Part shown: positions 1,202 to 59,596 of the stretch, in pieces
Position numbering within the stretch: the first letter of the stretch is position 1
Layout of the letters: the number at the start of each line of letters is the position of its first letter
Assembly: GCA_041694935.1 (NCBI GenBank)
Contig: JBGFRW010000021.1
Coordinates: 22,171-86,170 of the forward strand
Direction of reading: 5' to 3'
DNA: 64,000 bases
From: Pseudomonadota bacterium
GTDB lineage: Bacteria; Pseudomonadota; Gammaproteobacteria; Burkholderiales; Rhodocyclaceae
Notes under the pieces: model-generated
Seen by the model: only the letters and a program-made list of their open reading frames with translations
Database searches by the model: none
What the model was told of the DNA's origin: nothing
Translations under genes and position numbers: made by a program

Positions 1202-1777
1202 ATGGGATTGATCGCGTTGCGTTCCGGCTATCCGGGCGGCCGGCTCGGGTCGGCGCTCGCGATCAGCCTTGCCCTGCATCTGGCGCTGCTCTTTCCCCCG
1301 GGATGGCAGACTCCACCGTCCAAACCGGAGCCGCCGCCGCCGCTCCAGGCCACGCTGGCGATGCCCGAACAGACGAGCATCTTGGCCACCCAACCGGATG
1401 CCGAGCCGCCACCGGTCGCCGCGGCACCAGCCGAAACCCGAAAGTTGCCGGTGAAGGAGGAAGGTGCCGTCCCGCCGGCGCCGACTTTTCGCCCGCAGCC
1501 GCCGCGCGAGTTGAAGGGGCGAGAATTGAATGCGGCGCTGGCGGCGTTGTCGCGCGAGGAGTTCTATCCGCGCGAGGCCATCGAACGTGGCATCGAGGGG
1601 CGTGTCGTGCTGCTGCTGACGCTGAGCGAGACGGGGAGAGTGGTCGGTGTCGAAGTGGCCGGGAGTTCAGGCCATGCGATTCTCGATGCGGCGGCGGTGA
1701 AGGCCGCCGGACGCATCGGCGTTTTGCCCAGCGGCGGGCGTCAGGCGCTGCTGCCAGTGGAGTTCAGGCTGGAATGA
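1202..1777 (+). CDS. TonB C-terminal-domain protein (short TonB-like energy transducer)
   Basis: 191-aa ORF with an N-terminal hydrophobic segment and a Pro-rich spacer (KPEPPPPLQ, EPPPVAAAP). This is followed by a TonB_C-like segment YPREAIERGIEGRVVLLLTLSETGRVVGVEVAGSSGHAILDAAAVKAA. Confidence 0.7.
   Translation: MGLIALRSGYPGGRLGSALAISLALHLALLFPPGWQTPPSKPEPPPPLQATLAMPEQTSILATQPDAEPPPVAAAPAETRKLPVKEEGAVPPAPTFRPQPPRELKGRELNAALAALSREEFYPREAIERGIEGRVVLLLTLSETGRVVGVEVAGSSGHAILDAAAVKAAGRIGVLPSGGRQALLPVEFRLE
1463..1490 (-). repeat. Dispersed repeat copy j (antisense within TonB-like gene; read as GAVPPAPTF)
   Basis: Reverse complement GAAAAGTCGGCGCCGGCGGGACGGCACC. Confidence 0.85.
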
Positions 1778-1787
1778 GCCAACTCGA

Positions 1788-2096
1788 ATGACTTCGGTCG
1801 AGATTCGCTTGCATGCCGATGCGCCGGAGAAGCCGGCCGTCGGTGCAGTGTGCAACGGCTGCGGCGTATGCTGCAGCATCGCGCCTTGCCCGCTTTCGCG
1901 TGCGCTGCTCGGCCACCGGCAAGGAACCTGTCCCGCGCTGGAGTGGGCGGGAGAACGTTACGTGTGCGGACTGGCGACCGCACCGGGCAAGCATCTGCGC
2001 TGGCTGCCGGGGCGGTTCGCGCCGCTTGCCGCGCGTCTGGCGCGGCGGTGGATTTCATCGGGCAGCGGCTGCGATTGCGATGCGACGGTCGGTTAG
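1788..2096 (+). CDS. YkgJ/UPF0153-like cysteine-cluster protein
   Basis: 102-aa ORF with a CNGCGVCCS (CxxCxxCC) cluster plus further Cys residues, typical of the putative Zn/Fe-chelating YkgJ family. Confidence 0.5.
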   Translation: MTSVEIRLHADAPEKPAVGAVCNGCGVCCSIAPCPLSRALLGHRQGTCPALEWAGERYVCGLATAPGKHLRWLPGRFAPLAARLARRWISSGSGCDCDATVG

Positions 2097-2100
2097 ATAG

Positions 2101-2526
2101 TCAGCAGGCCTTGCAGGCTTCCACCGGTAGCCGGCGGGCTAGCCAGCCGGGGCCGGCGCCGCTTCCGGCCATGCCTTCGCGCACGTATACCTGCGTGAAG
2201 CCCTGGGCCTTCAGGAAACGGTGTACCTGGGTCGTGCGGTTGCCGGTACGGCAGATCAGGGCGATCGGCGCCGTCCTGTCGCCGCCGACTTTGGCCAGCA
2301 CCTCGTTGAGGAAGCCGGCCGCGCCCTGCGGATGGATCATGTTGATGAGCGTCGAACCTTCGGCGACGCCGGTTTCCTTCCATTCCGGCGGCGTGCGAAT
2401 GTCGATCAAGGTGATCTTGCCGGAGCGCACGGCCTCGTAGGCTTCGGGTGCGCTCATTTCCTGCGCGTGCGCAGGCAGGGCGGAGAGCGCCATCGAGATG
2501 GCGAGAATGCGGGAGAAACGGAACAT
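2101..2526 (-). CDS. Periplasmic rhodanese-domain sulfurtransferase
   Basis: 141-aa ORF with a signal peptide (MFRFSRILAISMALSALPAHA) and a rhodanese active-site loop CRTGNRT preceded by ...DIRTPPEWKETG. Confidence 0.8.
   Translation of the reverse strand: MFRFSRILAISMALSALPAHAQEMSAPEAYEAVRSGKITLIDIRTPPEWKETGVAEGSTLINMIHPQGAAGFLNEVLAKVGGDRTAPIALICRTGNRTTQVHRFLKAQGFTQVYVREGMAGSGAGPGWLARRLPVEACKAC
2267..2292 (-). repeat. Repeat-like segment k (sense in rhodanese gene; AKVGGDRTAP)
   Basis: Reverse complement AAAGTCGGCGGCGACAGGACGGCGCC, which matches 23 of 26 positions of the consensus. Confidence 0.55.
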
Positions 2527-2591
2527 CGGTTGTCCTCTGTCGTGGTTTGGATCAGCGGTATTTTAACGTCCCGCTTGGTATAGTCCGGCCG

Positions 2592-4906: not shown

Positions 4907-6840
4907 GCCTATTGTCCGTCCGCGACCTGTCGGTTCAGATCGGTACCGCGAACCCCGTCGATGGGGTGAGCTTCGAGATCGCGCCGGGCGAGACCTTTGC
5001 GCTGCTCGGCGAATCAGGTTGCGGCAAGTCGATGACGGCATTGGCGCTGATGCGCCTCCTGCCGTCTGCTGCGCGCATCGCGGGGGGGCGGATCGAGTTC
5101 GAGGGAAAGGACCTGTGCGCCCTGACCGAAGCAGAAATGCGTCCCGTCCGCGGCGGCAGGATCGGCATGATCTTCCAGGAGCCGGCGACCAGTCTCAATC
5201 CGGTGCTGACTGTCGGTGAGCAGATTGCCGAAGCCTTGCGCCTTCACGGTGCTGCGGCGCGAGAGGAGCGCATTGTCGAACTCCTGGCGCAGGTGGGCAT
5301 TCCCGACCCGGCGCGGCGCGCGCACGAATTCCCGTTCCAGATGTCCGGTGGCATGAAGCAGCGCGCGATGATCGCGATGACGCTCGCCGGAGAACCGGAA
5401 CTGCTGATCGCCGATGAGCCGACGACCGCGCTCGACGTGACGATCCAGGCGCAGGTCCTCGCGCTGCTTCGCGACCTGCAGCGGCAGCGAGGCATGGCGT
5501 TGCTGCTTATCACGCACGACCTCGGCGTGGTGGCCAAAATGGCCGACCGCGTCGGCATCATGTACGCCGGCCAGCTCGTCGAGGTTGCGCCGCGTGAGGC
5601 CTTCTTCGCGGCGCCGGGGCATCCCTATGCGCGGCGCTTGTTCGCCTCGTTGCCCGAAGCCGCTTCGCGTCGGCAGCGGCTCGCCACGATTCCAGGCAGC
5701 GTGCCGCCGCTTGGTACGCGCTTCGCCGGCTGTCGCTTTGTCGAGCGCTGCGCCGAGGCGCTGCCGATCTGCCGCACCCAGTCCCCACCTTGGCGCACCT
5801 ATGCGGCAGGCCAGACGGTGCGCTGCCATCTGGAAGAAAGCCCCTTCCACCTCCAGTCCCGCCCTCTCGGGCGGGGAGACTTTGTGCTCGCTACGCCCGT
5901 CGAAAAAGTCGGCGCTGGCGGGACGGCGCCGCTGCTCGAGGCCGAAGGTCTCAAGGTGCACTTTCCGATCCGGCAGGGGATTTTCCAGCGCACGGTCGGC
6001 CATGTGCGTGCCGTCGATGGTATCGACCTGCGTTTGACGGCCGGCCGTACGCTTGCACTGGTGGGTGAATCGGGCTGCGGCAAGACGACCGTCGGCAAGG
6101 CAATCCTCGGCCTGCAACTGCCGACCGACGGAACTGTGCGCCTTGGCGGCGAACGGCTGGCGGGACTGATGCCGTCGCGCATGCAGATGGTGTTCCAGGA
6201 TCCGTTCGGCTCGCTGAATCCGCGCATGCGGGTTGGCGAGATCGTCGCCGAGGGCGATCGCACGGCGGATGTCATTGAGTTGCTCGAGCAGGTTGGACTG
6301 TCCGCCGAAATGGCCGGCCGCTATCCGCACGAGTTTTCGGGCGGCCAGCGCCAGCGCATCGCCATCGCGCGCTCACTCGCACCGCACCCGCAAATTCTGA
6401 TCTGCGACGAACCGACCAGCGCGCTCGACGTCTCGGTGCAGGCGCAGATACTCAACCTGCTTTCCGATTTGCAGGAGGGGCTGGGGCTTGCCTACCTGTT
6501 CATCACGCACAACATCGCAGTGGTGGATTACCTCGCGCACGAGGTGGCGGTGATGTATCTGGGCCGCATCGTCGAGCGCGGCTCGGCCGACGAAGTGCTG
6601 CGCTCGCCATGCCATCCCTACACCCAGGCGCTGCTCGCGGCGGTGCCGAAGATCGACGGCAGCGGGACGGAACGCCTGCTGGTGCCGGGCGATCCGCCTT
6701 CGCCGGCTGCGCCGCCGGCGGGGTGTCATTTCCATCCGCGCTGCCCGCGTGCGCAAGCGCGCTGCCGCGAAGCATATCCCGAGGTAGCGGCAATCACGGC
6801 GACGCATGCCGTGAACTGCTTTTTCGCCGGCAGGGAGTGA
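4903..6840 (+). CDS. ABC transporter ATP-binding protein with duplicated ATPase domains (YejF-like)
   Basis: 645 aa with two Walker A motifs (GESGCGKS twice) and two signature motifs ([16 protein letters not shown]). The GTG start overlaps the permease stop. Confidence 0.9.
5902..5930 (+). repeat. Dispersed repeat copy a (sense, in yejF-like ATPase; [10 protein letters not shown])
   Basis: GAAAAAGTCGGCGCTGGCGGGACGGCGCC. Confidence 0.85.
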
Positions 6841-18079: not shown

Positions 18080-19368
18080 TGAATTCTTCATCCAGCGCAG
18101 GACCCGTGCGCCGCCCAACGCGGCGCGTCATGGTCGGGAAGGTCGCCATTGGCGGCGGCGTGTCGAAAGTCGGCGCCGACGGGACGGCGCCGGAGGGGGC
18201 GCCTGCTCCGGTGGTGGTTCAGTCGATGACCAACACGGATACCGCAGACGTGTTCGCCACAGCGCAGCAGGTCGCCGAGCTGCACCGCGCCGGATCGGAG
18301 ATCGTGCGCGTTACCGTGAACACCCGCGAAGCCGCCGCGGCCGTGCCGAAGATCAAGGAGCGGCTGGAGCTTTTGAATCTGAATGTGCCGCTGGTCGGCG
18401 ACTTCCACTTCAACGGCCACAAGCTGTTGGCCGAAGTGCCCGAATGTGCGCAGGCGCTCGACAAGTTGCGTATCAATCCCGGCAACGTCGGCAAGGGAGC
18501 GAAGCGCGACGAGCAGTTCGCCAGTCTGATCGAGATCGCCTGCAAATACAAAAAGCCGGTGCGCATCGGCGTGAATTGGGGCAGCCTTGACCAGCAGTTG
18601 CTCGCGCGCCTGATGGACGAAAATGGCAAACGCGCAGCGCCGAAAGACGCAACGGGGCTGATGCGCGAGGCGATGGTCGCCTCGGCACTCGAATCCGCCG
18701 CCAAGGCCGAGGAACTGGGCCTGCCCGGCGATGCGATCATCCTGTCGTGCAAGGTGAGTAGCGTGCAGGATCTGATCGCGATCTACCGCGACCTCGCCGC
18801 GCATTGCGACTACCCGCTGCACCTCGGGCTCACCGAGGCCGGCATGGGCAGCAAGGGCATCGTCGCCTCGACGGCGGCGTTGGCCGTATTGCTTCAGGAA
18901 GGCATCGGCGACACGATCCGCGTTTCCCTGACGCCCGCACCACACGAGCCGCGTACCAATGAAGTCGTCGTCGCTCAGGAGATCCTGCAGACCATGGGCC
19001 TGCGCGCCTTCGTGCCGATGGTGGTAGCCTGCCCAGGCTGCGGGCGCACCAGCAGCACGGTGTTCCAGGAACTTGCACAAGACATCCAGGCTTACGTGCG
19101 CGCGAAGATGCCCGAATGGCAGCTCCTGCACAAAGGCGTCGAGAACATGACCGTCGCCGTGATGGGCTGTGTCGTCAACGGCCCGGGCGAGAGCAAGCAC
19201 GCCAATCTCGGCATTTCCCTGCCAGGCACCGGCGAGGAACCGGTCGCACCGGTCTATGCCGACGGCGAACGCATCACCACCCTGCGCGGCGACAATATTG
19301 CCGCCGAATTCAGAGCCATCATCGACGGTTACGTCGATCGCAAGTATCCGCTGCACCGAGATTCATGA
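18079..19368 (+). CDS. ispG: 4-hydroxy-3-methylbut-2-enyl diphosphate synthase
   Basis: 429 aa with [21 protein letters not shown], and a CPGCGRT...GCVVNGPGE Fe-S cluster region. The N-terminus carries an insertion that coincides with repeat copy b. Confidence 0.95.
18165..18191 (+). repeat. Dispersed repeat copy b (sense, in ispG; [10 protein letters not shown])
   Basis: GAAAGTCGGCGCCGACGGGACGGCGCC. Confidence 0.85.
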
Positions 19369-20672: not shown

Positions 20673-21347
20673 ATGGCGACCTACGATCTCGAAGAGCAGG
20701 AACAGTTAGAAGAACTCAAGACCTGGTGGAAGATGCACGGCACGCTCGTTACGGCGGTCATCGTCGCGCTGGCTATCGGCGTGGTCGGCTGGCAGGGCTG
20801 GCAATGGTGGCAGCGCGGCCAGTCGAGCCAGGCCGCCCAGTTGTACGCCGGCATGCAGCAGGCACTGGCCGGGCAGGACATCAAGCGTGTGCGCCAACTT
20901 GCGGGGGAACTGATCGACAAGTATTCCAGCACCGCCTACGCCGGCATGGCGGGAATGCTGTCCGGCAAGGTGCTCGTGGAGACCGGCGATCTCAAGTCGG
21001 CGCAGGCCCAGTTCGGTTGGGTCGCCGAGCATGCCAAGGATGACGGCCTGCGCGATCTGGCCCGCTTGCGTCAGGCGATCGCATTCGCCGAAGAGAAAAC
21101 CGAGCAGGGGTACGAAGAGGCGCTGAAGCTGCTTGCCGTGCCGCCGGCGCCGACCCTGATGGCACGCTACCTCGAGGTGCGTGGCGATATTCTGGCGGCG
21201 CAAGGCAAGGGGGCTGAGGCTGGCAAGGCCTATGACGAGGCCATCAAGGCACTGGAAGCGGCCCGCAAGGCCGAGGGCGACATGCCGGCGGGGCCGTACC
21301 TCGAAATTCTCGATGCCAAGCGGAGCGCTGCCGGAGGGCAGTCGTGA
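20673..21347 (+). CDS. yfgM: YfgM-like membrane-anchored TPR protein
   Basis: 224 aa with an N-terminal TM segment after EEQEQLEELKTWW. Position between hisS and bamB is conserved. Confidence 0.75.
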   Translation: MATYDLEEQEQLEELKTWWKMHGTLVTAVIVALAIGVVGWQGWQWWQRGQSSQAAQLYAGMQQALAGQDIKRVRQLAGELIDKYSSTAYAGMAGMLSGKVLVETGDLKSAQAQFGWVAEHAKDDGLRDLARLRQAIAFAEEKTEQGYEEALKLLAVPPAPTLMARYLEVRGDILAAQGKGAEAGKAYDEAIKALEAARKAEGDMPAGPYLEILDAKRSAAGGQS

Positions 21348-22510
21348 GATTGAGACTGATCGCGCTGGCCGGCGCTGCCGCCTTGGCGGCAACCGGCTGT
21401 TCGTCGATCGGTAATGCGGTCGACGCCATCAATCCGTTCAGCAAATCCGCACCCAAGGTCAAGCCGGCCGAACTGACTCCGATCCAATCGACGGATGAAC
21501 TCAGAGTCCAATGGCAGGCGAATGTCGGCAGTGCCGGCGAGCATGCCTTTACACCGGCGGTGGTCGGAGACAGCGTCTATGCAGCTGCCAAGGACGGTAG
21601 CATCGCTCGCTTCGAGGGCGGCCGTCAGGTTTGGCGCATCAGTGCCGGCCAGCCCCTCTCCGGCGGCGTCGGTTCCGATGGCAAGCTGGTGGTCGTCGGG
21701 ACGTCGAAGGGCGACGTGCTGGCTTTCAAAGCTACTGATGGCACGCCAGCCTGGCAGGCCCGGACGAGTTCGGAAGTCCTCGCCGCTCCCGCAGTTTCGG
21801 CCGGCCTCGTCGCGGTGCGGAGCGGCGACGCGCGGATCTTCGGCTTCGATGCCGCTGACGGCAAGCGACGCTGGGTCTATCAGCGCAGCACACCGGCACT
21901 GGCATTGCGTTCCCCGGTCGGTGTGACGCTCACTGGCAAGGCGCTCTACGCGGGGTTCCCCGGCGGCAAGCTGGTGGCGATTGCGCTTAACAACGGTGCC
22001 GCCCTGTGGGAATCCGCCGTCGCGCAGCCGCGTGGCGCCACCGAACTGGAGCGCATCGCCGACGTGGCGAGTGAGCCTGTCGTGGATGGCGGTTCGGTGT
22101 GTGCCGTCGCCTATCAGGGGCGCGTTGCCTGTTTCGATGCCGACAACGGCCGCCAGTTGTGGGCGCGTGAGATTTCCTCGGTCGCCGGTCTGGCCATCGG
22201 TAGCCGCTCGCTCTACGTGACCGACGAGAAGGGGGCGGTGCATGCCTTCGAACGCAGCGGTGGCGCCAGCCTCTGGAAGCAGGACAAGCTGTTCATGCGT
22301 GGCGTGTCGCGACCGCTCGTCGTCGGGCGCCGTGTTGCCGTCGCCGACTTTCAGGGCGTGGTTCATCTCCTTTCCGCTGAAGACGGCGCTTTCGCCGCAC
22401 GCCTGACGACCGACGGCTCGGCGGTGCTCGTGCCGCCGCAGCGGCTCGGAGAGAATGCCTTCCTCGTGCAGACCAGGAACGGCGGATTGCACGCCCTGAC
22501 GACGAAATAA
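21344..22510 (+). CDS. bamB: Outer membrane protein assembly factor BamB
   Basis: 388 aa with a lipobox (LAATGCSS) and PQQ-like beta-propeller repeats. Lies upstream of der. Confidence 0.9.
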
Positions 22511-22512: not shown

Positions 22513-23841
22513 ATGCTGCCCACGCTTGCTCTGGTCGGCCGACCCAACGTCGGCAAGTCGACGCTCTTCAACCGGCTGACGAAAACGCGCGATGCGTTGG
22601 TCGCCGATCAGCCGGGACTGACGCGTGATCGCCATTACGGCCACGGCCGGCTCGGCAAGCGACCCTTTCTCGTCGTCGATACCGGCGGCTTCGAGCCGCA
22701 GGCGAAAGACGGCATCGAGCATGAAATGGCGCGCCAGGCCGAAGCGGCGATCGCCGAGGCCGATGCGCTGATCTTTCTCGTCGACGGCCGCGCCGGGCTC
22801 ACGCCGCAGGACAAAGTGATCGCCGAGCGGCTGCGCCGCTCCGGCAGGCCGCTGCATCTCGCCGTCAACAAGGCAGAGGGCATGAACCGCGATGTCGTTG
22901 CGGCAGAGTTCCACGAACTCGGTTGCGGCGATCCGCTTGTCATCTCGTCGGCGCACGGCGATGGCGTGCGCGAGATGCTCGAGCTGGTGATGGAGGCCTT
23001 TCCCGAGGACGAGCCGGACGATGCCTCAGAAAGCGGGCCGCGCGTCGCCGTGGTCGGGCGGCCGAACGTCGGCAAGAGCACGCTGATCAACAGCCTGCTT
23101 GGCGAGGAACGCATGATCGCCTTCGACATGCCGGGTACCACGCGTGATGCGATTTCCACGCCGTTCGAGAAGAATGGCAAGCGCTACACCCTGATCGATA
23201 CGGCCGGCCTGCGACGCAAGGGCCGCGTTTTCGAGGCGATCGAGAAGTTTTCGGTGATCAAGACGCTGCAGGCGGTCGAGGCGGCCAATGTCGTCGTGCT
23301 GATGGTCGACGCGAGTCAGGATATCTCCGATCAGGACGCGCACATTGCAGGATTTTGCATCGAGGCCGGGCGTGCGCTGGTGCTGGCGGTGAACAAATGG
23401 GACGCCGTCGACCAATATCGCCGCGACCAGATCAAGCAGGACATCATGCGCAAGCTCAACTTCCTCGGCTTCGCACGCGTCCATTACATCTCGGCATTGA
23501 AGGGGCAGGGCGTTGCCAGCGTGCTCCAGTCAGTCGACAAGGCCTATGCCGCGGCGATGGTCAAGCTGTCCACGCCTAAGCTCACGCGCGTGTTGCTCGA
23601 CGCCGTTCAGAAACAGGCGCCGCCCAGACACGGCAATGTTCGCCCCAAGCTGCGTTATGCGCACCAGGGCGGCAGCAACCCGCCGATCATCGTGATCCAC
23701 GGCAATGCGCTCGAACACGTGCCGCCGGCCTACGTCCGCTATCTCGAGCACACCTACCTCGAGGCCTTCAAGCTGCAGGGCACGCCGCTGCGAATCCAGT
23801 TCAAGAGCAGCAAGAATCCCTACGTCGACAAGGAAAAATAG
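22513..23841 (+). CDS. der: Ribosome-associated GTPase Der (EngA)
   Basis: 442 aa with two GTPase domains (GRPNVGKST twice) and a KH-like C-terminus. Confidence 0.95.
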
Positions 23842-23864
23842 TCGGCGCTGGCGACACGGTACGG
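23833..23864 (+). repeat. Dispersed repeat copy c (variant, spans the der stop codon)
   Basis: GAAAAATAGTCGGCGCTGGCGACACGGTACGG. The extra T creates the der TAG. Confidence 0.7.
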
Positions 23865-24272: not shown

Positions 24273-24740
24273 ATGCAAGTCAGGCAGATTCTCGATATCA
24301 AGGGTACGGTGCTCTATACGATTTCTCCCGACAAGAAGCTCGCCGAAGCGGTGGCGGTGATGAGCGAGCAGGACGTCGGATCGCTGGTCTGCTTCGAGGG
24401 CGGCCGCATGGTCGGCATGCTGACCTTCCGCGAAGTGGTGCGCACGCTGCATGCCGAAGGTGCGGCATGGGGCGGCATCCCAATCCGCGATGTGATGGTG
24501 AAGAACCCGCGCACGGCAGATCCGTTCATGGACGTCGACCAGTTGCGCCGGTTGATGATCAGCGAGCATATGCGTTACTTGCCAGTGATGGACGGCTATA
24601 CGCTGCTCGGGGTGATTTCCTTCCACGACGTCGCCAAGGCGGTGCTCGAGGAACAGACCTTCGAGAACCGCATGCTCAAGGCCTATATCCGCGACTGGCC
24701 TGCCGAGCAGGCGGAACAGGAAGCAGCGCACGGTTCCTGA
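24273..24740 (+). CDS. CBS-domain pair protein
   Basis: Start at MQVRQILDIKG, preceded by GGAGAG. Two CBS-like modules (…RDVMVKNPRTADPFMDVDQLRRLMISEHMRYLPVMD…ISFHDVAKAV). Confidence 0.8.
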   Translation: MQVRQILDIKGTVLYTISPDKKLAEAVAVMSEQDVGSLVCFEGGRMVGMLTFREVVRTLHAEGAAWGGIPIRDVMVKNPRTADPFMDVDQLRRLMISEHMRYLPVMDGYTLLGVISFHDVAKAVLEEQTFENRMLKAYIRDWPAEQAEQEAAHGS

Positions 24741-24765
24741 AAGTCGGCGCCGGCGGGACGGCGCC
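24739..24765 (+). repeat. Dispersed repeat copy d (fills the gap between convergent CBS and GGDEF/EAL genes)
   Basis: GAAAGTCGGCGCCGGCGGGACGGCGCC. Its first two bases are part of the CBS-gene TGA. Confidence 0.85.
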
Positions 24766-30038: not shown

Positions 30039-31184
30039 GTGAGCCCTTTGGGGCGGCTGGCCGCCTGGTATTTCTTCTATTTCGCTTTCGTCGGCGCATT
30101 CGCGCCGTATTTCACTCTTTATTTGCAGGACATCGGCCAAAGCGCCTGGGAAATCGGCGTGCTGATGTCCGTGCCCCAGGTGATGCGCCTGTTGGCGCCG
30201 AACCTCTGGGGCTGGCTGGCCGACCATTTCGGACACCGCACGGCGATCGTGCGGCTGGCCGCAGCCTGTTCCGCGCTCGGCTTCATCGGCTTCTTCTTCA
30301 CGCAAGACTTCGCGCTGATGCTCGCAGCGATGGCGCTCGTCTGGTTCTTCTGGAGCGCTGCGCTTCCGCTCGTCGAGGCGATGACGCTCGACCGGCTCGC
30401 CGGCCGGACCGAGCGCTATGGCAGCATTCGTCTCTGGGGGTCGGTCGGATTCATCGTCAGCGTGCTGGTTATCGGCGCAATCCTCGACTATGTTCCGGCG
30501 GATGCGATTCTCTGGGCCTGTCTGTTCATTCTTGCCAGCGTGCTGGCCAGCGCGCTGACCCTGCCGGAGACGAAAGTCGCTGCCGGCGTTGCGGCGCCTC
30601 CACTCGGCAGTCTGATCATGCGCCCGGCGGTACTTGCGCTGCTGGCTGCCAGTTTCTTCATGTCCATGGCCCATGGGCCGCTCTATATCTTTTTCTCAAT
30701 CCATCTGGTCGACCACGGCTACGACAAGACGGCAGTTGGTCTCTACTGGTCGCTCGGCGTATTGGCCGAGATTGTGGTGTTTCTTTACATGCCGCGTCTG
30801 ATGAAGCACGCGTCGTTGCGAGCTATCCTATTGGCCAGTTTTGCGCTTGCCGTCGTGCGCTTCCTTTTGATCGGCTGGGGGACTGCTTCGGCGACCATGC
30901 TGCTGTTCGCCCAGATCTTGCATGGCGCGACCTTCGGGGCCTACCATGCAGCTTCTGTAGCGGTGCTGACGCAGTGGTTTCCCCCGCAACAGCAGGCACG
31001 CATGCAAGGGCTCTATGGCAGTTTGTCTTTCGGAGCGGGCGGCATGGTAGGCGGTCTGATCAGCGGCCAAGCCTGGGATAGTCTCGGTGCCGGAATGACA
31101 TATACCCTCGCAGCGCTGTTCGCGGCTTGTGGCTGGTTGCTTGTGTGGCGCTGGCTGTCATCCAAATCATTGGAGTGCCGTTGA
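30039..31184 (+). CDS. MFS transporter (HcaT/PPP-like)
   Basis: 381 aa with ~12 hydrophobic segments and the N-terminus AAWYFFYFAFVGAFAPYFTLYLQ. GTG start. Confidence 0.75.
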   Translation: MSPLGRLAAWYFFYFAFVGAFAPYFTLYLQDIGQSAWEIGVLMSVPQVMRLLAPNLWGWLADHFGHRTAIVRLAAACSALGFIGFFFTQDFALMLAAMALVWFFWSAALPLVEAMTLDRLAGRTERYGSIRLWGSVGFIVSVLVIGAILDYVPADAILWACLFILASVLASALTLPETKVAAGVAAPPLGSLIMRPAVLALLAASFFMSMAHGPLYIFFSIHLVDHGYDKTAVGLYWSLGVLAEIVVFLYMPRLMKHASLRAILLASFALAVVRFLLIGWGTASATMLLFAQILHGATFGAYHAASVAVLTQWFPPQQQARMQGLYGSLSFGAGGMVGGLISGQAWDSLGAGMTYTLAALFAACGWLLVWRWLSSKSLECR

Positions 31185-31993: not shown

Positions 31994-33400
31994 ATGCCGA
32001 AAACGCTTTACGACAAATTGTGGGAGAGCCACGTCGTCCGCACCGAGCCGGACGGCACCGCGCTGCTCTACATCGACCGCCATCTGGTACATGAGGTGAC
32101 CAGCCCGCAGGCCTTTGAGGGGCTCAAGCTCGCCGGCCGCAAGCCATGGCGCGTGTCCTCGATCGTCGCCACTGCCGACCATAACACGCCGACCGACCAC
32201 TGGGAACGCGGCATCGAAGACCCGGTATCGCGCCAGCAGGTCGAGACGCTTGACGTCAACATCCGCGAGGTTGGCGCCTTGGCCTATTTCCCGTTCAAGG
32301 ACGCCCGTCAGGGTATTGTCCATGTGGTCGGTCCGGAGAACGGTGCAACGCTGCCGGGCATGACTGTCGTCTGCGGCGACTCGCACACCTCGACCCACGG
32401 CGCCTTCGCCTGCCTGGCGCACGGCATCGGCACCTCTGAGGTCGAACACGTGATGGCGACGCAGTGTCTGCTGCAGAAGAAGATGAAGTCGATGCTGATT
32501 CGCGTCGAAGGAAAAGTCGGCGCTGGCGTGACGGCGAAGGACATCGTGCTGGCCATCATCGGCAAGATCGGCACGGCCGGCGGCACAGGTTACGCCATCG
32601 AGTTCGGCGGCAGCGCTATCCGCGCGCTGTCGATGGAAGGGCGTATGACGGTCTGCAACATGGCGATCGAGGCAGGCGCGCGTGTCGGCTTTGTCGCTGT
32701 CGACGACACCACCATCTCCTATCTCAAAGACCGTTCCTTCGCCCCAAAGGGCGAGCAGTGGGATCGCGCCGTCGCCTACTGGCATACGCTGACGTCCGAT
32801 CCGGGCGCGCAGTTCGATGCCGTCGTCGATCTCGATGCGTCGGCGATTCAGCCGCAGGTCACCTGGGGCACCTCTCCCGAGATGGTGGTGCCCGTCGACG
32901 GCCGCGTGCCGGCGCCGGAGGACTTCGTTGATCCGGTCAAGCGTGAAGGCGTCGCTCGCGCATTGCAATACATGGGGCTGGCCCCGCGCACGCCGATCAA
33001 GGAGATCAAGGTCGACCAGGTCTTCATTGGCAGTTGTACCAACTCGCGCATCGAGGACCTGCGAGAGGCGGCTTTCGTCGCCCGTGGCAGGCATAAGGCG
33101 GCGAATGTGAAACGGGTGCTTGTCGTGCCGGGTTCCGGTCTCGTCAAGAAGCAGGCCGAAGCTGAGGGGCTCGACAAGATTTTTACCGCCGCAGGTTTCG
33201 AGTGGCGCGAGCCTGGTTGCTCGATGTGCTTGGCGATGAATGCTGACCGGCTCGAGCCCGGTGAGCGTTGCGCCTCGACCTCGAACCGTAATTTCGAAGG
33301 CCGCCAGGGTAATGGCGGTCGTACTCACCTTGTCAGTCCGGCCATGGCTGCAGCCGCAGCCGTCGCTGGACATTTCGCGGATGTCAGAGACATTCTTTAA
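31994..33400 (+). CDS. leuC: 3-isopropylmalate dehydratase large subunit
   Basis: 468 aa: [15 protein letters not shown]...[12 protein letters not shown]...[12 protein letters not shown]. Confidence 0.95.
32511..32536 (+). repeat. Repeat-like segment e (sense, in conserved part of leuC; [10 protein letters not shown])
   Basis: GAAAAGTCGGCGCTGGCGTGACGGCG. The similarity stops at ...GCGAAGG, and there is no length change relative to LeuC as I recall it. Confidence 0.5.
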
Positions 33401-33411
33401 CGGAGACGATC

Positions 33412-44286: not shown

Positions 44287-45581
44287 TGGCGGATATGTCT
44301 GGCCGCAGCCTGCAGGACTGGCTCGGCCATCTGGAAAGCCTGCACCCGCGCGGGCAGGCCGGCATCGAACTCGGGCTCGAACGCATCATACGGGTCAAGA
44401 CAGCGCTGGGACAGCGCCAGACCTGTCCGGTCATCACCGTCGGCGGCACCAACGGCAAAGGTTCGGCTTGTGCGATGCTAGAGCGCATCCTGCTGTGCGC
44501 AGGCTACCGTGTCGGCCTCTACACTTCCCCCCATCTGTTGAGCTACAACGAGCGAGTGCGTGTCAACGGCGCCGTCGTGAGCGATGAGGAATTGTGCTCG
44601 GCTTTTGAAAGGGTCGAGGGAGCGCGCAACGATGTGTCGCTGACCTATTTCGAATTCGGGACCCTCGCGGCGTGGGAGGTGTTTGCCGCGGCGGGGCTCG
44701 ACGCCATCATCCTCGAAGTCGGGCTCGGCGGACGCCTTGACGCGACGAATGCCTATGATGCCGATTGTGCAGTCGTCACGACGATCGGTCTCGACCATAT
44801 GGACTACCTTGGCCCGACGCGAGAAACGATCGGCCGCGAAAAGGCCGGCATCTGCCGGGCAGGCCGGCCACTGATCTGCGGCGACGACGATCCGCCGCAG
44901 TCGCTCGCAGAAGCATGCCGTGTCGCCGGCGCCGACTTTTGGCGCATCGGCCGTGATTTTGGCTTCGTGCGCCAAGAAGGTCAGTGGCAGTTCTGGACAA
45001 AGGGTGGCCGCAAGCTCGGCGGACTGGCCTTTCCTGCGTTGCGGGGGGGGTATCAGCTGAACAACGCGAGTTGTGCGCTGGCGGTGCTCGACGCCTTGCG
45101 CGAACGCCTGCCGGTCGCCGCGCAGGATGTTCGGCGCGGCCTCGCCGAGGTCGAGGTGGCGGGACGCTGCCAGGTGCTGCCGGGACGGCCACAGATTGTC
45201 CTCGACGTCGCCCACAACCCGCAGGCGGCAGCGGCGCTTGCGGCGAGCCTGGGCGACATGGGTTTCTCGCGCGCGACCTGGGCGGTGTTCGGCATGATGG
45301 CGGACAAGGACATCACGGGCGTCGTCGACGCGCTGCAATCCCGCATCGATCGCTGGCTGGCCTGCGACCTGCCCGGAACCCGTGCAGCCAGTGCCGAACA
45401 GCTTGCGGCGGTCATCGAAAAAGTCGGCGCTGGCAAGACGGCGCCGGTGTGCTTCGCTAGCCCCGCCGCAGCGCTTGCCTATGCTCAGGAGAACGCAGAG
45501 GCCGATGATAGAATCCTCGCCTTCGGATCGTTCCTGACGGTGGCGGACGTGATGCGTTCCCTGGGTCGCAAGGCTGGCTGA
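44286..45581 (+). CDS. folC: Bifunctional folylpolyglutamate synthase/dihydrofolate synthase
   Basis: P-loop VGGTNGKGS; Mur-ligase family. ATG 44286 overlaps the accD TGA (the ORF track begins at TTG 44283). Confidence 0.9.
   Translation: MADMSGRSLQDWLGHLESLHPRGQAGIELGLERIIRVKTALGQRQTCPVITVGGTNGKGSACAMLERILLCAGYRVGLYTSPHLLSYNERVRVNGAVVSDEELCSAFERVEGARNDVSLTYFEFGTLAAWEVFAAAGLDAIILEVGLGGRLDATNAYDADCAVVTTIGLDHMDYLGPTRETIGREKAGICRAGRPLICGDDDPPQSLAEACRVAGADFWRIGRDFGFVRQEGQWQFWTKGGRKLGGLAFPALRGGYQLNNASCALAVLDALRERLPVAAQDVRRGLAEVEVAGRCQVLPGRPQIVLDVAHNPQAAAALAASLGDMGFSRATWAVFGMMADKDITGVVDALQSRIDRWLACDLPGTRAASAEQLAAVIEKVGAGKTAPVCFASPAAALAYAQENAEADDRILAFGSFLTVADVMRSLGRKAG
44913..44940 (-). repeat. Dispersed repeat copy i (antisense within folC; read as CRVAGADFW)
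   Basis: Reverse complement AAAAGTCGGCGCCGGCGACACGGCATGC. It shares the GCGACACGG variant with copy c. Confidence 0.6.
45417..45445 (+). repeat. Dispersed repeat copy f (sense, in folC; EKVGAGKTAP)
   Basis: GAAAAAGTCGGCGCTGGCAAGACGGCGCC. Confidence 0.85.
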
Positions 45582-49691: not shown

Positions 49692-52606
49692 CTTTCCAGG
49701 TAGCTGCGCAATTCGGTCGCGACCGCTTCATATTCGGTGCGCAGCGCGGCAATGGCGGTCTCTGCACCAGCGAGCTTGCCTTCTGCGGCGTCCTGCTCGA
49801 GCATGCGAGCCATGGCCGACAGGTGCATCGCCCCGTAGGTCGCTGCAGAAGACTTGAGGCTGTGCGCATGGCGGCGAAGCGTGGGCGCATCGTTTGCAGT
49901 CAGAGCGCTGGTCATCTCGTCGAATAGCGGCGGAGTCGATTCAAGGAAGACATCGATCAGCGAGGCGAAGTCGCTGCCGAACTGAGTACGGAAATTGTCC
50001 AGCGGCTTGCGGTCGAGGTGCGTTTCGGCGGAGCTTGAGTGAGCCTCCTTGCTTGATGCGCCGCCAGTGCTGGCAGCTGGAACTGTGGGTAGTGGCAGGG
50101 TGAACCAGAAAGTCGAGCCTCTGCCGACGGCACTTTCGGCATCCATGGTCCCGCCCATCAGCTCGACAAGACGCTTGGAGATGGTTAGCCCGATCCCTGT
50201 CCCGCCGACCTTGCGAGTATTGCTCGTATCGCCCTGCGAGAAAGGTTGGAACAGTAGGTCCAGTTTCTCCCGCTCGATGCCGACTCCGGTGTCACGCACT
50301 GCAATGCGAAGCTGCGGCGTTCCGTCCACTTTATTTCCGACGTTCTTGACATCGACTTCGATATGCCCCGCGTCGGTGAATTTGACGGCGTTGCCAAGGA
50401 GGTTGAGCAGAACCTGTCGGATGCGTCCTGCGTCACCGATGACCAAACGCGGGCAATCGGAGGCATAGTGCATGCGCAATTCCAGTCCCTTTTCCGCAGC
50501 ACGTGCCGCCATCAGACCGATGATTTCTGACACGCTTCCCTCAAGGTCGAACGTGGCAGAAAGAATCTCCATATGGCCGGCGTCGAGATTCGAGAAGTCG
50601 AGGATGTCGTTGAGGATGGTCAGGAGAGCGCTGCCGGATTTCATGAGGGTCTGGGCATACTCTTCCTGTTCCTGAGAGAGTCCGGATTGGGAAAGGATCT
50701 GCGCCATGCCGAGAATGCCATTCAATGGCGTGCGAATTTCATGACTCATGGTGGCAAGGAAATCGCTCTTGGCGCGCTCTCCGGCCTCGGCGCTCAGGCG
50801 TGCCTCTTCGAGAGCTGCGCGGGACTGGCGAGCCGCGATGCCTAGGGCGAGAATGTCCGCTACCTGAGACAGGAATTCGCGTTCGCCGCCTTTTTCTTCG
50901 TAGTCGTGCGGCAGATAAAGCACCAGTACGCCAAGCAAGGCTTCGCCGTGAAGGATCGGCAGGTTGTAGTGGCCGTGCGGCGCCATGTCATCAAAGGAAA
51001 TATCGTGACGCTCGTCGAGGCAGCGGGCGAACTGGATCTTACGGGTCGCCGCGGCACGGCCGCAGAGGCACTTCCCGTGCGGCACACGGGCGCAGAGAGT
51101 CAGCAGCGGTGCAGAAAGATTGCGTTCGGCGGCCAGTATCAACTCCGGTGCCGTCCCGCTAGTGCCTACCTTTTCGAGAAAGATTGCTCCCTTGGGCAAA
51201 AGCGTCAACCAAGGAACGCTATCGAGCAGGGTATCGATGCTCAGTTGCAGGTATTCAGGCATCGGCATCGGTTGCAGCGATAGACGCAGCAGCGCGGCAA
51301 GGGTGCGCGCCTGCTTGGCGTCGAGCTCGGCGACTGCCTTGGCTTCGATCAGCACTTGGCTTGCACGGCTATCCGCTTCCAGGTTAGTGCGGGCGCGCAC
51401 GTCGTTGCGCATGTGTTCAAAGGCGCGGGCAAGTGTGCCGATTTCGTTCGCTTCCCCGGTCGGCAAGGGAAGGTCACGGCCCGACTCGGCAAATGCCCGC
51501 ACTGAGGCAGTCATGCGGCGCAGAGGACTGGTCAGTGTCGCGGCGGCAAGGAAAGCGAGAGGAATAGCGGCGAGGGCAACGACATAGAGCATCGGCAATA
51601 GGGCTGCGCTCGCTGCCTTCGCGCTGGCCTGGGCGCTGGCGTAGGTCTCGGTGACGGCAACCGTGATGTAGCGTTGTGTTTGGCGGCTATCGAAAGGCAG
51701 GCGAACCACGCCGGCGATGACTTCGCGTCCGCTGCTTTCCTTGTCATGGACACTGAATGCATCCTGATTGAGGAAATCAATCTCGCGGTGCACTGCCGGC
51801 AAGAGGGTGGGTAACTCGGGATCTGCCGCATTGCCGGGGAACTCGAATCCGTAGCTGCAGGTGATGGAAGGCGGAGCCGTCAGGCAATAGCCGTCGGAGT
51901 TGAATAGATAGAGCGACTGCCCCTCGCGCAAGCTACCACGCATGATGCCGAGCACTTTTGCAAGGTCGAGTTGCAGCACCAAGATGCCCAGAGATTCCCC
52001 CTTGGCATCGTGCAGCGGGGCAAGCGCATGGATAACGGGCTGAAATGGCTCGAGGATGTTGCCGTTCTTTCGTTTCAGTTGGGTTGCACTCAGGTAGGTC
52101 TGTCCGGATGACAAGCCACGGCCGATACGATACAGGGAGCTGTCGGCGAAACTTTCTTGGAGATCGGAGTCATCAGCGGATGGTGGCTGGCCTTGCTTGG
52201 CGCGAACCAGCACCCGGCCGGGTTGGACGGTGCTGACCAAGAAGGCCTCAGCATAGTTCGTGTTGCTGAGCAGAAAGGTAACGAGATCGTTGTGTGCCCG
52301 CTCGCGTGAGGTATCTCTACTACGCGTGTCTGCGAGCGCAAGCAGTGAAGGAAAAGAAGCCATCGTGACCGCGTCGTGGCGCAGGTGCTCGAGGATGTTG
52401 ATGCGCAGATGCTCCGCCAAACCATGCACTGCATTGACGAGGGCGTGGCGCTCGGTTCTTTCCAATTGTTGGCCGAACTCCCGCTGGGCTAGGTGGGCGG
52501 TCAGGCCGATGAGAACCAGTACCAGCAGCACGATGCCCAGTGTGATCCGTGCAGTGAGGCTGCGGGGAAAGAGAGCAATACCGGAAGGACTTGCCGAGCG
52601 TGTCAT
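49688..52606 (-). CDS. Membrane sensor histidine kinase (periplasmic domain-HAMP-GAF-HisKA-HATPase-Hpt, no receiver)
   Basis: 972 aa. H-box SDFLATMSHEIRTPLNG, N/G boxes (LLNLLGNAVKFT, DTGVGI, GGTGIGL), a GAF-like region, and a C-terminal Hpt (RRHAHSLKSSAATYG). Confidence 0.9.
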   Translation of the reverse strand: MTRSASPSGIALFPRSLTARITLGIVLLVLVLIGLTAHLAQREFGQQLERTERHALVNAVHGLAEHLRINILEHLRHDAVTMASFPSLLALADTRSRDTSRERAHNDLVTFLLSNTNYAEAFLVSTVQPGRVLVRAKQGQPPSADDSDLQESFADSSLYRIGRGLSSGQTYLSATQLKRKNGNILEPFQPVIHALAPLHDAKGESLGILVLQLDLAKVLGIMRGSLREGQSLYLFNSDGYCLTAPPSITCSYGFEFPGNAADPELPTLLPAVHREIDFLNQDAFSVHDKESSGREVIAGVVRLPFDSRQTQRYITVAVTETYASAQASAKAASAALLPMLYVVALAAIPLAFLAAATLTSPLRRMTASVRAFAESGRDLPLPTGEANEIGTLARAFEHMRNDVRARTNLEADSRASQVLIEAKAVAELDAKQARTLAALLRLSLQPMPMPEYLQLSIDTLLDSVPWLTLLPKGAIFLEKVGTSGTAPELILAAERNLSAPLLTLCARVPHGKCLCGRAAATRKIQFARCLDERHDISFDDMAPHGHYNLPILHGEALLGVLVLYLPHDYEEKGGEREFLSQVADILALGIAARQSRAALEEARLSAEAGERAKSDFLATMSHEIRTPLNGILGMAQILSQSGLSQEQEEYAQTLMKSGSALLTILNDILDFSNLDAGHMEILSATFDLEGSVSEIIGLMAARAAEKGLELRMHYASDCPRLVIGDAGRIRQVLLNLLGNAVKFTDAGHIEVDVKNVGNKVDGTPQLRIAVRDTGVGIEREKLDLLFQPFSQGDTSNTRKVGGTGIGLTISKRLVELMGGTMDAESAVGRGSTFWFTLPLPTVPAASTGGASSKEAHSSSAETHLDRKPLDNFRTQFGSDFASLIDVFLESTPPLFDEMTSALTANDAPTLRRHAHSLKSSAATYGAMHLSAMARMLEQDAAEGKLAGAETAIAALRTEYEAVATELRSYLES
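51147..51175 (-). repeat. Dispersed repeat copy g (diverged; sense in histidine kinase GAF region; EKVGTSGTAP)
   Basis: Reverse complement GAAAAGGTAGGCACTAGCGGGACGGCACC. Confidence 0.65.
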
Positions 52607-55735: not shown

Positions 55736-55843
55736 GGTTTGGGGCCGATAAGCAGGCGGCTGCAGGGCTTTAATACTGAACCTGACTCGGGTACAATTGA
55801 CAGGTTTTCGCATTTGCATTTTCTCTTTCCAGGAAGCCCCACC

Positions 55844-56440: not shown

Positions 56441-56443
56441 GGC

Positions 56444-57739: not shown

Positions 57740-58450
57740 ATGAAAAAGCTGCTTCTTGCGCTCCTCAGCGCGCCTCTACTCGCATTTGCAGGCGGTGCCG
57801 AACTGCATTTGGACAAGGCACCCGATCGCTCGCGCGATTTCGCCGCCTTGCAGAATGGCGCCAAGGTGTTCGTCAATTACTGCCTGAACTGCCATTCGGC
57901 GTCCTACTTCCGCTACAACCGTCTGATGGATATCGGCCTGAGCGAACAGCAGATCAAGGACAACCTGCTGTTTACCGCCGACAAGGTTGGAGAGCCGATG
58001 ACCATTGCGATGCGTCGTGCCGATGCCAAGCTTTGGTTCGGAGCGGCTCCGCCTGACCTGACGGTGATCGCTCGTGCGCGCTCCTCTGAGTTTGGTTCCG
58101 GTTCCGACTGGCTGTATACCTACCTGCGCGGCTTCTATCGCGACGATGCCCGTCCCACCGGCTGGAACAACACAGTGTTCGCGAACGTCGGCATGCCGCA
58201 TGTGCTCTGGGAGTTGCAGGGCGAGCAGGCCATGGGCGCAGATCATAAGCTTTCGCTGGCGAAACCCGGCTTGATGAAGCCGGCGGAATACGACGCCATG
58301 GTTGCCGACCTGGTCGGCTTCCTCGCCCATATAGGCGAGCCAATGGCCAACTTCCGCAAGCAGCTTGGCGTCATCGTCCTGATTTTCCTTGCAATCCTGT
58401 TCGTCTTCTCCTATGCACTGAAGCGCGAATACTGGAAAGACGTTCATTAA
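57740..58450 (+). CDS. petC: Cytochrome c1
   Basis: 236 aa with a signal peptide, haem motif CLNCHS and a C-terminal TM anchor. Confidence 0.9.
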   Translation: MKKLLLALLSAPLLAFAGGAELHLDKAPDRSRDFAALQNGAKVFVNYCLNCHSASYFRYNRLMDIGLSEQQIKDNLLFTADKVGEPMTIAMRRADAKLWFGAAPPDLTVIARARSSEFGSGSDWLYTYLRGFYRDDARPTGWNNTVFANVGMPHVLWELQGEQAMGADHKLSLAKPGLMKPAEYDAMVADLVGFLAHIGEPMANFRKQLGVIVLIFLAILFVFSYALKREYWKDVH

Positions 58451-58549
58451 AGTAGAAAGAATGACAAAACAGCCATGGGGCATCGAGATATGAATCCACC
58501 CGTCCGACGCGTGGTGCGTGATTCCGATTATTCCTGGGGAACGAGTGCC

Positions 58550-59146
58550 ATGATGAACTTGTACTCAGGCACTACCTGTCCTTTTAGCCATCGTTGCCGC
58601 ATCGTCTTGTACGAGAAGCAGATGGACTTCCAGGTCATTGACGTTGATCTCTTCAACAAGCCTGAAGACATCGCCGTCATCAACCCTTACAACCGTGTGC
58701 CGGTGCTGGTGGATCGTGATCTCGTGCTTTACGAGTCGAACATCATCAACGAATACATCGATGAGCGCTTTCCTCATCCGCAGCTGATGCCACCCGACCC
58801 CCAGACCCGGGCCAAGGCGCGCCAGTTGCTGCACACGATGGAAATTGAGCTGTTCAGTCACATCGATGCGCTCGAGCGCAACCTCAAGTCGGCTGACAAA
58901 TCCCGCGCGCACATTCGCGACCGGCTGGTCGAACTGGTACCTCTCTTCGCGAAGCAGAAGTTCCTGCTCGGCGACGATTTCTCCATGCTCGATGTCGCCA
59001 TTGCCCCCCTGTTGTGGCGCCTCGACCACTACGGTATCGAGCTGCCCAAGTCGGCGGCCCCGGTCATGAAATTTGCCGAGCGCATCTTCTCGCGCCAAGG
59101 CTTCATCGACGCACTCACGCCGTCTGAAAAGGTGATGCGCCGCTGA
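58550..59146 (+). CDS. sspA: Stringent starvation protein A (GST-like)
   Basis: Start at MMNLYSGTTCPFSHRCRIVLYEK; GST fold. Followed by sspB. Confidence 0.9.
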   Translation: MMNLYSGTTCPFSHRCRIVLYEKQMDFQVIDVDLFNKPEDIAVINPYNRVPVLVDRDLVLYESNIINEYIDERFPHPQLMPPDPQTRAKARQLLHTMEIELFSHIDALERNLKSADKSRAHIRDRLVELVPLFAKQKFLLGDDFSMLDVAIAPLLWRLDHYGIELPKSAAPVMKFAERIFSRQGFIDALTPSEKVMRR

Positions 59147-59170
59147 TCCGCGGCGCATTACCCTTTTTCT

Positions 59171-59596
59171 ATGGTTTCAACCAAGCCGTACTTGATCCGC
59201 GCCATTCATGAATGGTGCTCGGATCAGGGCTTCACGCCCTATCTGGCTGTGCAGGTGGATGAGCGCACGCGCGTCCCGCGCGAATTCGTGCGCGACGGTC
59301 AGATCGTGTTGAACATCAGCCTCGAAGCGACCCATCAACTGGTGATGGGCAACGATGAGATCACCTTTCAGACCCGTTTCAGCGGCACGACTTTCCCGGT
59401 CGTGGTTCCGGTCGATGCCGTTGCAGCTATCTACGCACGCGAAAACGGGCAAGGCATGGCCTTCGAGCCGGTCGCCAGTCCGGCAGGAATGAGCGAGGAA
59501 AAAGTCGGCGCCGGCGATACGGCGCCTGGCGAGCCCGCAAGCCCCGACGAGGGGGGGGGCGGCCGCCGCGGCGGTCATCTGACGCGCATCAAATAG
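59171..59596 (+). CDS. sspB: ClpXP adaptor SspB (stringent starvation protein B)
   Basis: 141 aa: STKPYLIRAIHEWCSDQGFTPYLAV...VLNIS. It has a flexible Gly-rich linker and a short basic C-terminal tail (HLTRIK). The linker contains repeat copy h. Confidence 0.9.
   Translation: MVSTKPYLIRAIHEWCSDQGFTPYLAVQVDERTRVPREFVRDGQIVLNISLEATHQLVMGNDEITFQTRFSGTTFPVVVPVDAVAAIYARENGQGMAFEPVASPAGMSEEKVGAGDTAPGEPASPDEGGGGRRGGHLTRIK
59498..59526 (+). repeat. Dispersed repeat copy h (sense, in sspB linker; EKVGAGDTAP)
   Basis: GAAAAAGTCGGCGCCGGCGATACGGCGCC. Confidence 0.85.

Follow-up and report, generated by a model that had tools for sequence, protein, structure and literature searches.

A clade-specific 24-bp DNA word dispersed through genes, phages and integron cassettes of Rhodocyclaceae: a candidate uptake-signal-type motif

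Why does the same GC-rich word recur along an otherwise ordinary piece of bacterial chromosome, on both strands, and, wherever it lies in sense within unrelated genes, always in one reading frame? We addressed this question in a 64,000-nucleotide stretch from a Sulfuritalea-like Rhodocyclaceae bacterium (positions 22,171 to 86,170 of contig JBGFRW010000021.1, assembly GCA_041694935.1; the whole stretch is called the window below), which is part of a 129.7-kb contig from JGI metagenome 3300045950 and has a GC content of ~62%. The word, AAAGTCGGCGCYGGC-NNN-ACGGCR(CC), is present in the window as 13 good copies and one degenerate copy, as determined by a Hamming scan of both strands with a 26-mer. 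When the 23-mer consensus was searched with up to three mismatches, eight matches were found in the window and none in 100 dinucleotide-preserving shuffles. Eleven of the 12 copies listed in a preliminary description of the window were recovered with the same position and strand. The twelfth, at 11333, shares only GGAAAGTCGG with the others and is not a copy, and the list had missed those at 22326 (-) and 30573 (+) as well as the degenerate copy at 21132 (-), which is orthologous to perfect copies in relatives.

Clade specificity and constraint at the DNA level

The word is specific to one clade of Rhodocyclaceae that includes Sulfuritalea, Sulfurisoma and their allies. A scan with the query AAGTCGGCGCYGGCNNNACGGC across one genome per GTDB species returned at least 119 motif blocks from at least about 77 species-level assemblies, and among the matches listed nearly all belonged to Rhodocyclaceae or Sterolibacteriaceae. 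Carriers among these listed matches were Sulfuritalea, Sulfurisoma (including the isolate S. sediminicola BSN1) and Rugosibacter, together with metagenome-assembled genomes labelled Methyloversatilis, Propionivibrio and Azonexus. Using the positions outside the query, we obtained a family consensus of 24-26 bp, R-AAAGTCGGCGC-Y-GGC-(G)(R)(G)-ACGGC-R, which has sharp edges and unconserved flanks. The layout is bipartite, with an 11-bp block, a 3-bp variable spacer and a 5-6-bp block, and about 20 positions are near-invariant across the family. Because the same motif was found in well over 100 independent assemblies, an assembly artefact, a concern raised in the preliminary description, is excluded.

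For an unbiased sample, 80 metagenomic loci were picked solely by Der homology. In the 93.5 kb of loci whose Der was at least 80% identical there were 21 copies, or about 2.2 per 10 kb, whereas one weak match (about 0.01 per 10 kb) was found in the ~960 kb of the 71 loci whose Der identity was 76% or less. Likewise, the 10-mer AAGTCGGCGC occurred 10 times per 64 kb in the window versus 23 times per 962 kb in the outgroup loci. The window uses a dialect of the word: CC follows the motif on its 3′ side in 69% of copies versus about 32% elsewhere, and C and T are equally frequent at position 12, compared with mostly T across relatives, in which positions 25-26 are unconserved.

All eight sense copies within genes of the window were read in the same frame, AAA GTC GGC GCY GGC xxx ACG GCR, encoding K-V-G-A-G-x-T-A. 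Their hosts are a rhodanese, an ABC ATPase, IspG, an MFS transporter, LeuC, FolC, a histidine kinase and SspB; seven of these copies had been noted before as sharing a frame, and the eighth obeys the same rule. The four antisense genic copies use two frames, encoding AVPPAPTF (TonB and YfgM) and RVAxADF (BamB and FolC). The lysine codon was AAA in 8/8 sense copies versus 22% of the lysine codons in window genes, and the probability of the motif codons given the peptide was 0.0037 (about 0.004) per site. The same DNA word was also found on the antisense strand, in other frames, spanning stop codons and in intergenic gaps. Because the synonymous positions are fixed, these results support the earlier view that the element is maintained at the DNA level and not as a peptide motif.

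To extend the frame analysis to a larger sample, we used a codon log-odds gene caller, which left about half of the copies unclassified and gave confident calls for 115 of 262. Among these 115 copies, 45 were sense-0, 32 antisense-1 (AVPPAPTF) and 16 antisense-0 (RRxASADF); the rest were 14 sense-1 (several right after a stop codon), five antisense-2 and three sense-2, and Arg-rich frames were rare. The frame preference was thus strong but not exclusive. The preliminary description had put the chance that seven copies agree in frame at (1/3)^6; the arithmetic is correct, but the agreement has an ordinary cause. Copies share a frame because they arise and survive where the native peptide already resembles K-V-G-x-G-x-T-A, and the bias follows from the small, flexible or Pro/Ala-rich peptides that frame 0 and the two antisense frames encode, which are natural to loops and linkers.

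Mode of origin at orthologous sites

We compared eight orthologous or homologous sites, located in BamB, YfgM, LeuC, rhodanese, TonB, FolC (two sites) and, in relatives, IspG. At all eight, the motif overlays an existing similar peptide with no or minimal change in length. The copy at 22326..22351 (-; four mismatches) is antisense in bamB (21344-22510 +) and encodes RRVAVADF, which aligned without gaps against the AVAVGDY-type sequence of about 70 orthologues; the DNA at this site forms a graded series from the outgroup (GTAATCGCCGACGGCGACA...) to the motif. The degenerate copy at 21132..21157 (-; 6/26 mismatches) is antisense in the yfgM-like TPR_21 gene (20673-21347 +), where it encodes AVPPAPTL. 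At this site the AAHAPAF-type sequence of outgroups has been replaced by AVPPAPTF without an indel, and versions that are perfect, off by one or decayed occupy this place in the five closest genomes: the copy is perfect in L122, near-perfect in L121, L123 and L124, and degenerate in the window (L numbers designate the sequences compared).

Similar results were obtained for the other sites. Copy j (1463..1488, -; one mismatch) is antisense in the Pro-rich linker of the TonB gene (1202-1777 +) and encodes AVPPAPTF, in place of which L076 has AVPPAPTI and L022 has MRPAPTI, a local difference of at most one residue. Copy k (2267..2292, -; three mismatches) lies in sense frame 0 in the rhodanese gene (2101-2526 -); its AKVGGDRTAP corresponds to AKTGGKMNAP, of equal length, in sister genomes and to SKVGKDKT--I in a rhodanese from the PDB. 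LeuC, which is outside the reach of the Der-anchored loci, was compared with PDB homologues. The peptide of copy e (32513..32538, +), in sense frame 0 within the catalytic domain (leuC, 31994-33400 +), was gap-free against the solved homologues (GDLQPYVTSKD and GSLSGWTSPKD).

FolC (44283-45581 +) contains two copies. Copy i (44914..44939, -), antisense and encoding CRVAGADFW, showed no indel relative to E. coli FolC (QEKGALLQR). Copy f (45420..45445, +; three mismatches), in sense frame 0 near the C-terminus and encoding EKVGAGKTAP, overlays LEHLGNGKS, the native peptide of the E. coli protein; the alignment has a gap of four residues here, where the sequence is variable.

Copy b (18166..18191, +; one mismatch) is read in sense frame 0 close to the N-terminus of IspG (18079-19368 +). 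At this site in L127 and L122, the native peptide beneath the motif is GKVGVGG-TAP. The IspG N-terminus (window 18079-18240) has 15 extra residues in the window and in L123, six in L122 and none in outgroups, and these 15 residues are the sole sizeable length difference among the sites compared. The extra segment looks like a local duplication of the motif-bearing native GKVxxGG..AP stretch.

Two further sense copies, both in frame 0, could be followed in relatives. The MFS transporter gene (30039-31184 +) carries a copy at 30573..30598 (+; five mismatches) that encodes TKVAAGVAAP in the central loop, and L122 has a perfect copy at the orthologous site. Copy h (59501..59526, +; two mismatches) encodes EKVGAGDTAP within SspB (59171-59596 +), in a flexible linker. 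The syntenic L041, at about 80% nucleotide identity, retains this copy, although an 11-residue indel follows it directly in the linker. As a separate observation, a run of nine G residues (window 59551-59559) lies 25 nt downstream of copy h and encodes GGG in the flexible C-terminal linker of SspB; this homopolymer could be prone to slippage or to sequencing errors.

Among the Der-anchored loci, copies turned over between close relatives. Together, these alignments show that copies were made in place by base substitution, where the sequence and the encoded peptide were already near the word. In-place substitution at word-like sites excludes an inserting element, and the proposal of a miniature mobile element similar to the Rickettsia palindromic elements (RPEs), one of the explanations offered previously, is contradicted by orthologous sites at which sequence was replaced without an indel. 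Gene conversion alone, another of those explanations, cannot create copies from non-homologous sequence.

Other copies, gene context, phages and cassettes

Four copies in the window remain to be described. Copy a (5905..5930, +; one mismatch) lies in sense frame 0 in the gene for an oligopeptide-type ABC protein (4903-6840 +), at the linker joining the two ATPase halves. Copy g (51147..51172, -), degenerate with six mismatches, lies in sense frame 0 in a hybrid histidine kinase gene (49688-52606 -) and encodes EKVGTSGTAP. Copy c (23838..23863, +), a variant ATAGTCGGCGCTGGCGACACGG, spans the stop codon of der (TAG, 23839-23841), which falls within the variant AAATAGTC (window 23838-23841); in the relatives L121, L124, L127 and L129, a copy is likewise found just 3′ of der. 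Copy d (24740..24765, +) is perfect and is located between the convergent CBS-domain gene (end 24740) and GGDEF-EAL gene (end 24767), so that its first A is the final base of the TGA stop of the CBS-domain gene. In other genomes, several copies directly follow a stop codon (TGA AAG TCG ...). No terminator-like T-run or other terminator-like site was seen at the intergenic copies of the window.

The gene content of the window is that of ordinary betaproteobacterial core genes, including those for TonB, the rhodanese, the oligopeptide-type ABC ATPase and chorismate synthase, ispG, the yfgM-like TPR gene, bamB, der, leuCDB, asd, fimV, trpFBA, folC, the hybrid histidine kinase gene and sspB. FimV is the sole type IV pilus assembly factor encoded in the window. 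Scans of the window for Rfam families and tRNAs detected only a tRNA-Arg and no RNA family overlapping the copies. Public gene calls also place a 40-residue open reading frame (ORF) of the entericidin family between leuC and leuD (window 33400-33540). In the larger sample, about half of the copies were clearly genic, non-coding copies were found in 15 convergent versus four divergent gaps, and no positional pattern relative to promoters was seen.

The motif was also present in at least 120 IMG/VR stretches. The density of extra copies was 0.57 per 10 kb in these stretches versus 1.38 in genome blocks and about 0.01 in outgroups. Two sequences, L239 and L260, are true phages and share their metagenome of origin (3300045950) with the window; some of their copies are in frame in phage genes. 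L239 (1-10649) is Mu-like, encoding a transposase, a MuB-type protein, Gam and a late activator, and has three copies in 10.6 kb. L260 (1-14992) is podovirus-like, with a tail spike, an endolysin and a 2,095-residue virion protein, and has several copies; the copy within the virion-protein ORF is in frame 0 by position arithmetic.

L061, L253 and L220 are integron cassette arrays with attC cores (RYYYAAC ... GTTRRRY), and they are unusually rich in the motif. L061:1-6122 has nine copies in 6 kb, and L253:560-2300 consists of tandem, apparently non-coding 316-bp cassettes with one copy apiece. In L220:4500-8608, 5/6 copies directly abut the attC core site in short untranslated cassette ends. 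L220 was considered as a phage and rejected, since its PHROG annotation is not clearly phage. Both the L253 and the L220 arrays are filed as viral in IMG/VR.

Uptake signal, binding site or self tag

Biased DNA uptake followed by recombination is the process known to build such words, as in the DNA uptake sequences (DUS) of Neisseriaceae and the uptake signal sequences (USS) of Pasteurellaceae. Because the motif is a clade-specific, dialect-forming, asymmetric word that lies within genes and is built by substitution, we ranked first the interpretation that it is an uptake-signal-type word spread by molecular drive; by analogy with DUS and USS, this interpretation is about evenly balanced between holding and failing. 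According to this model, competent cells of the clade would preferentially bind and take up DNA that bears the word, which would be recognised by a sequence-specific receptor on the type IV pilus or competence machinery. Homologous recombination would swap weaker alleles for better-matching ones, and the word would thus accumulate by molecular drive where the peptide is tolerated (KVGAGxTA in sense; AVPPAPTF or RVAxADF in antisense). Resident prophages and integron cassettes would be swept along.

Several features of the motif are those of DUS and USS. A specific word is over-represented by orders of magnitude (in the window versus shuffles, and in relatives versus outgroups); it is shared at the family level, with dialects, and is absent from neighbouring clades; and it arises by point substitution at tolerated positions, with a frame bias and in both orientations. 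The lower density of extra copies in mobile DNA than in the host chromosome, and the lack of a gene family or transposase-like partner associated with the word among the 119 blocks, also speak for this interpretation. An uptake-signal-like sequence had already been suggested in the preliminary description, and that suggestion fitted every feature on which it was assessed. Considered as a whole, the interpretation given there is partly supported.

The DUS, 10-12 bp long (AT-DUS ATGCCGTCTGAA and its dialects) and read by the minor pilin ComP, shares with the motif a clade-wide, dialect-forming word that presumably numbers hundreds to thousands of copies on both strands, preferred frames in genes, positions 3′ of genes, origin by substitution rather than insertion, and hosts of the betaproteobacterial lineage. 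The USS consists of a 9-bp core (AAGTGCGGT or ACAAGCGGT) within an extended motif of ~30 bp, comparable to the motif in its overall span of about 25-30 bp, and the 5′ block AAAGTCGGCG of the motif superficially resembles AAGTGCGGT. The differences are also clear. The motif is unrelated to DUS in sequence, having only GACGGC(A) in common with the DUS reverse complement and lacking the essential CTG; it is 24-26 bp rather than 10-12 bp long, and it almost never forms inverted terminator pairs. Unlike USS, it has about 20 near-invariant positions instead of a 9-bp core with weak AT-rich flanks, and its hosts are Betaproteobacteria, not Gammaproteobacteria. Its density of about 1 per 5 kb is ~5-fold lower than that of DUS, at about 1 per 1.1 kb (PMC2817400). 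The genic share of about half is comparable with the 49-65% of USS copies that lie in ORFs (PMC2817400) and with the 35-65% given for DUS and USS together (PMC2817400, PMC2346458). The biases are of the same kind: USS favour certain frames and weakly conserved positions (Findlay & Redfield, PMC2817400), and both USS and DUS are biased towards gene termini (van Passel, PMC2346458).

The consensus AAAGTCGGCGCYGGCNNNACGGCR matches neither the DUS nor the USS consensus and, because sequence membership is lacking, the motif could at most represent a new uptake-signal family. Literature searches by exact sequence and by topic returned no account of the word, nor any uptake sequence beyond the two classical families. 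By the same analogy, the motif may be a third, independently evolved DNA-uptake specificity, unusually long and in free-living Rhodocyclaceae, a proposal to which we give about as much weight as to its negation.

The following observations weigh against an uptake signal. Searches of the literature turned up no account of natural competence for Sulfuritalea and its relatives. With about 20 near-invariant positions, the word is twice as long as the DUS or the USS core, and such a long, information-rich word would be harder to originate gradually by drive and looks more like a protein operator. Phages and integron cassettes carry several copies each, in contrast to USS, which are reported to be missing from genes without homologues in related genomes (PMC2817400). 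A close inverted pair was found once in 291 copies, whereas such pairs are common for DUS and USS. This sole pair, at L113:1360-1412 (AAAGTCGGCGCTGGCGGTACGGCG ATAAT CGCCGTACCGCCAGCGCCGACTTT), forms a perfect hairpin with a 24-bp stem (-37 kcal/mol as DNA) and recalls the terminator pairs of DUS and USS. Finally, orientation relative to local GC skew was mildly biased, 117 to 67 (64% on the G-rich strand); the test is approximate, as the direction of replication was deduced from the skew of 8-kb blocks. In the window, good copies were oriented 8 to 5.

The strongest competitor is an array of binding sites for a putative clade-specific DNA-binding protein, either a nucleoid-organising factor or the reader of a 'self' mark, such as a repair or defence nuclease; we regard this as possible, although clearly less probable than the uptake signal. 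Selection would keep the sites, and phages would gain the mark for the advantage that it gives them in this host. The word is indeed long, bipartite, highly specific and operator-like, multiple copies are present in real phages and cassettes, and there is a mild strand bias. The motif also contains GCTGGCGG, which agrees at 7/8 positions with E. coli Chi: motif positions 10-17 (e.g. window 5914-5921) are one base from the Chi sequence, GCTGGTGG, and the window dialect often has GCCGGCGG in place of GCTGGCGG.

However, selection at each site is hard to envisage for several hundred ~40-bit sites, most of them within unrelated genes, and drive-mutation balance fits better with orthologous copies that decay and regenerate between close relatives. 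No promoter-related positioning was seen, and divergent gaps were depleted. The 64% orientation bias is far below the polarity of Chi or of the FtsK-orienting polar sequences (KOPS). Like these, the motif is an over-represented chromosomal word; we did not assign it to them, as it is a 24-nt word with a 117 to 67 orientation, in contrast to 8-mers with strong replication polarity. We also clustered 1,706 ORFs from the 119 blocks in search of a recurrent motif-linked gene, following the logic of RAYT (REP-associated tyrosine transposase), Ssn or ComP, and found none. The largest ORF cluster near the motif covered just 11/119 blocks, indicating that there is no dedicated partner gene.

Somewhat less probable again is a genome-wide 'self' tag that is not an uptake signal, a 24-bp bipartite site read or written by a clade-specific system. 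Such a tag would be imposed on the chromosome, on Mu-like and podovirus-like phages and on integron cassettes, in which the word lies close against the attC borders, and phages would adopt it so as to be taken for host DNA.

Ectopic gene conversion or templated 'writing' independent of DNA uptake, for example by a short single-stranded DNA template that edits near-matches, is improbable. It would account for the replacement of existing sequence without length change, for the sharp motif edges without flank similarity, and for the fact that any DNA resident in the cell is affected, phages and cassettes included. RecA-type conversion, however, depends on homologous flanks, which are absent from a 24-bp island, and has no way of starting at a partial match. 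At BamB and YfgM, the graded intermediates look like single substitutions rather than one-step pasting, and the window showed no template locus, whether of the retron type or of another kind.

A miniature element inserting in frame, whether similar to RPEs or to miniature inverted-repeat transposable elements (MITEs), or a repetitive extragenic palindromic (REP) sequence or REP doublet forming hairpins (REPIN) moved by a RAYT transposase, is very unlikely. A repeat dispersed within genes in one frame, the inverted doublet in L113 and a hairpin of 6-8 bp in the window dialect are the features that recall such elements. Most orthologous sites, however, show no length change. RPEs are 100-150-bp insertions that add residues; the motif resembles them as an in-frame repeat within unrelated protein genes, yet adds no residues at most of its sites. 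Neither in the window nor in the family alignment were flank similarity, terminal repeats or target duplications found at copies, as had been reported for flanks and target-site duplications in the preliminary description. With no insertions relative to empty orthologous sites and no such terminal structures, the motif was not classed as a MITE or RPE.

The hairpin is likewise a property of the dialect. The 9-nt half-sites and the GGCGCC hairpin described before are present in the window but not across relatives, as seen from positions 12 and 25-26 and from folding. The window dialect folded at -12.5 kcal/mol (z -2.6), whereas the family consensus, at -5.8 kcal/mol (z -1.2), was not better than shuffles. 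A role as an RNA structure or hairpin was rejected, since positions 12 (C/T) and 24 (G/A) vary without compensating changes and the structure is stable in the window dialect only.

The motif shares with REP/REPIN (RAYT) and NTS/SRM (Ssn nuclease) repeats a short, GC-rich, dispersed and lineage-specific character. Repeats of both kinds form hairpins, lie outside genes and often occur as inverted doublets and flank a cognate gene (PMC11893778 for NTS/SRM). The motif, in contrast, has no conserved hairpin or conserved palindrome, is about half genic and almost never paired, and is without a linked RAYT-type gene; it was not placed among REP/REPIN sequences. No transposase-like partner recurrently linked to the motif was found among the 119 blocks. 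The highly iterated palindrome of cyanobacteria (HIP1, GCGATCGC) is an 8-bp word linked to a methyltransferase. It is another over-abundant word put into genes by substitution, and its function is debated; the motif differs in its 24-bp length, its asymmetry and its much lower frequency per kb.

A convergent or ancient peptide motif, K-V-G-A-G-x-T-A-P, under protein-level selection would account for eight genic copies in one frame and for the similar native loop of several host proteins, yet it has next to no probability, because the synonymous positions are fixed (including the disfavoured lysine codon AAA), the same DNA is found antisense, in other frames, across stops and between genes, and orthologues outside the clade lack the peptide.

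Whatever its function, the motif provides a compact taxonomic watermark by which metagenomic contigs, phages and integron cassettes can be assigned to the clade; here it linked two phages of the same sample to the lineage of the window, and phages of this clade could be assigned to their hosts by it. The chance that the motif is something without precedent is sizeable. If the uptake interpretation is false, an over-abundant 24-bp word built into genes by substitution would have no known mechanism, which would be more surprising still. To our knowledge, the bacterial families with sequence-specific DNA uptake number just two, the host-associated Neisseriaceae and Pasteurellaceae, and this limit has restricted tests of how uptake signals and their receptors evolve. 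If the uptake interpretation is true, the motif would be a third system, unrelated in sequence and much longer, in widespread environmental sulfur-oxidising and denitrifying Rhodocyclaceae. It would allow a test of whether molecular drive can build a ~40-bit signal, would point to a new receptor, and would bring cryptic natural transformation to light in the communities of groundwater, lakes and wastewater.

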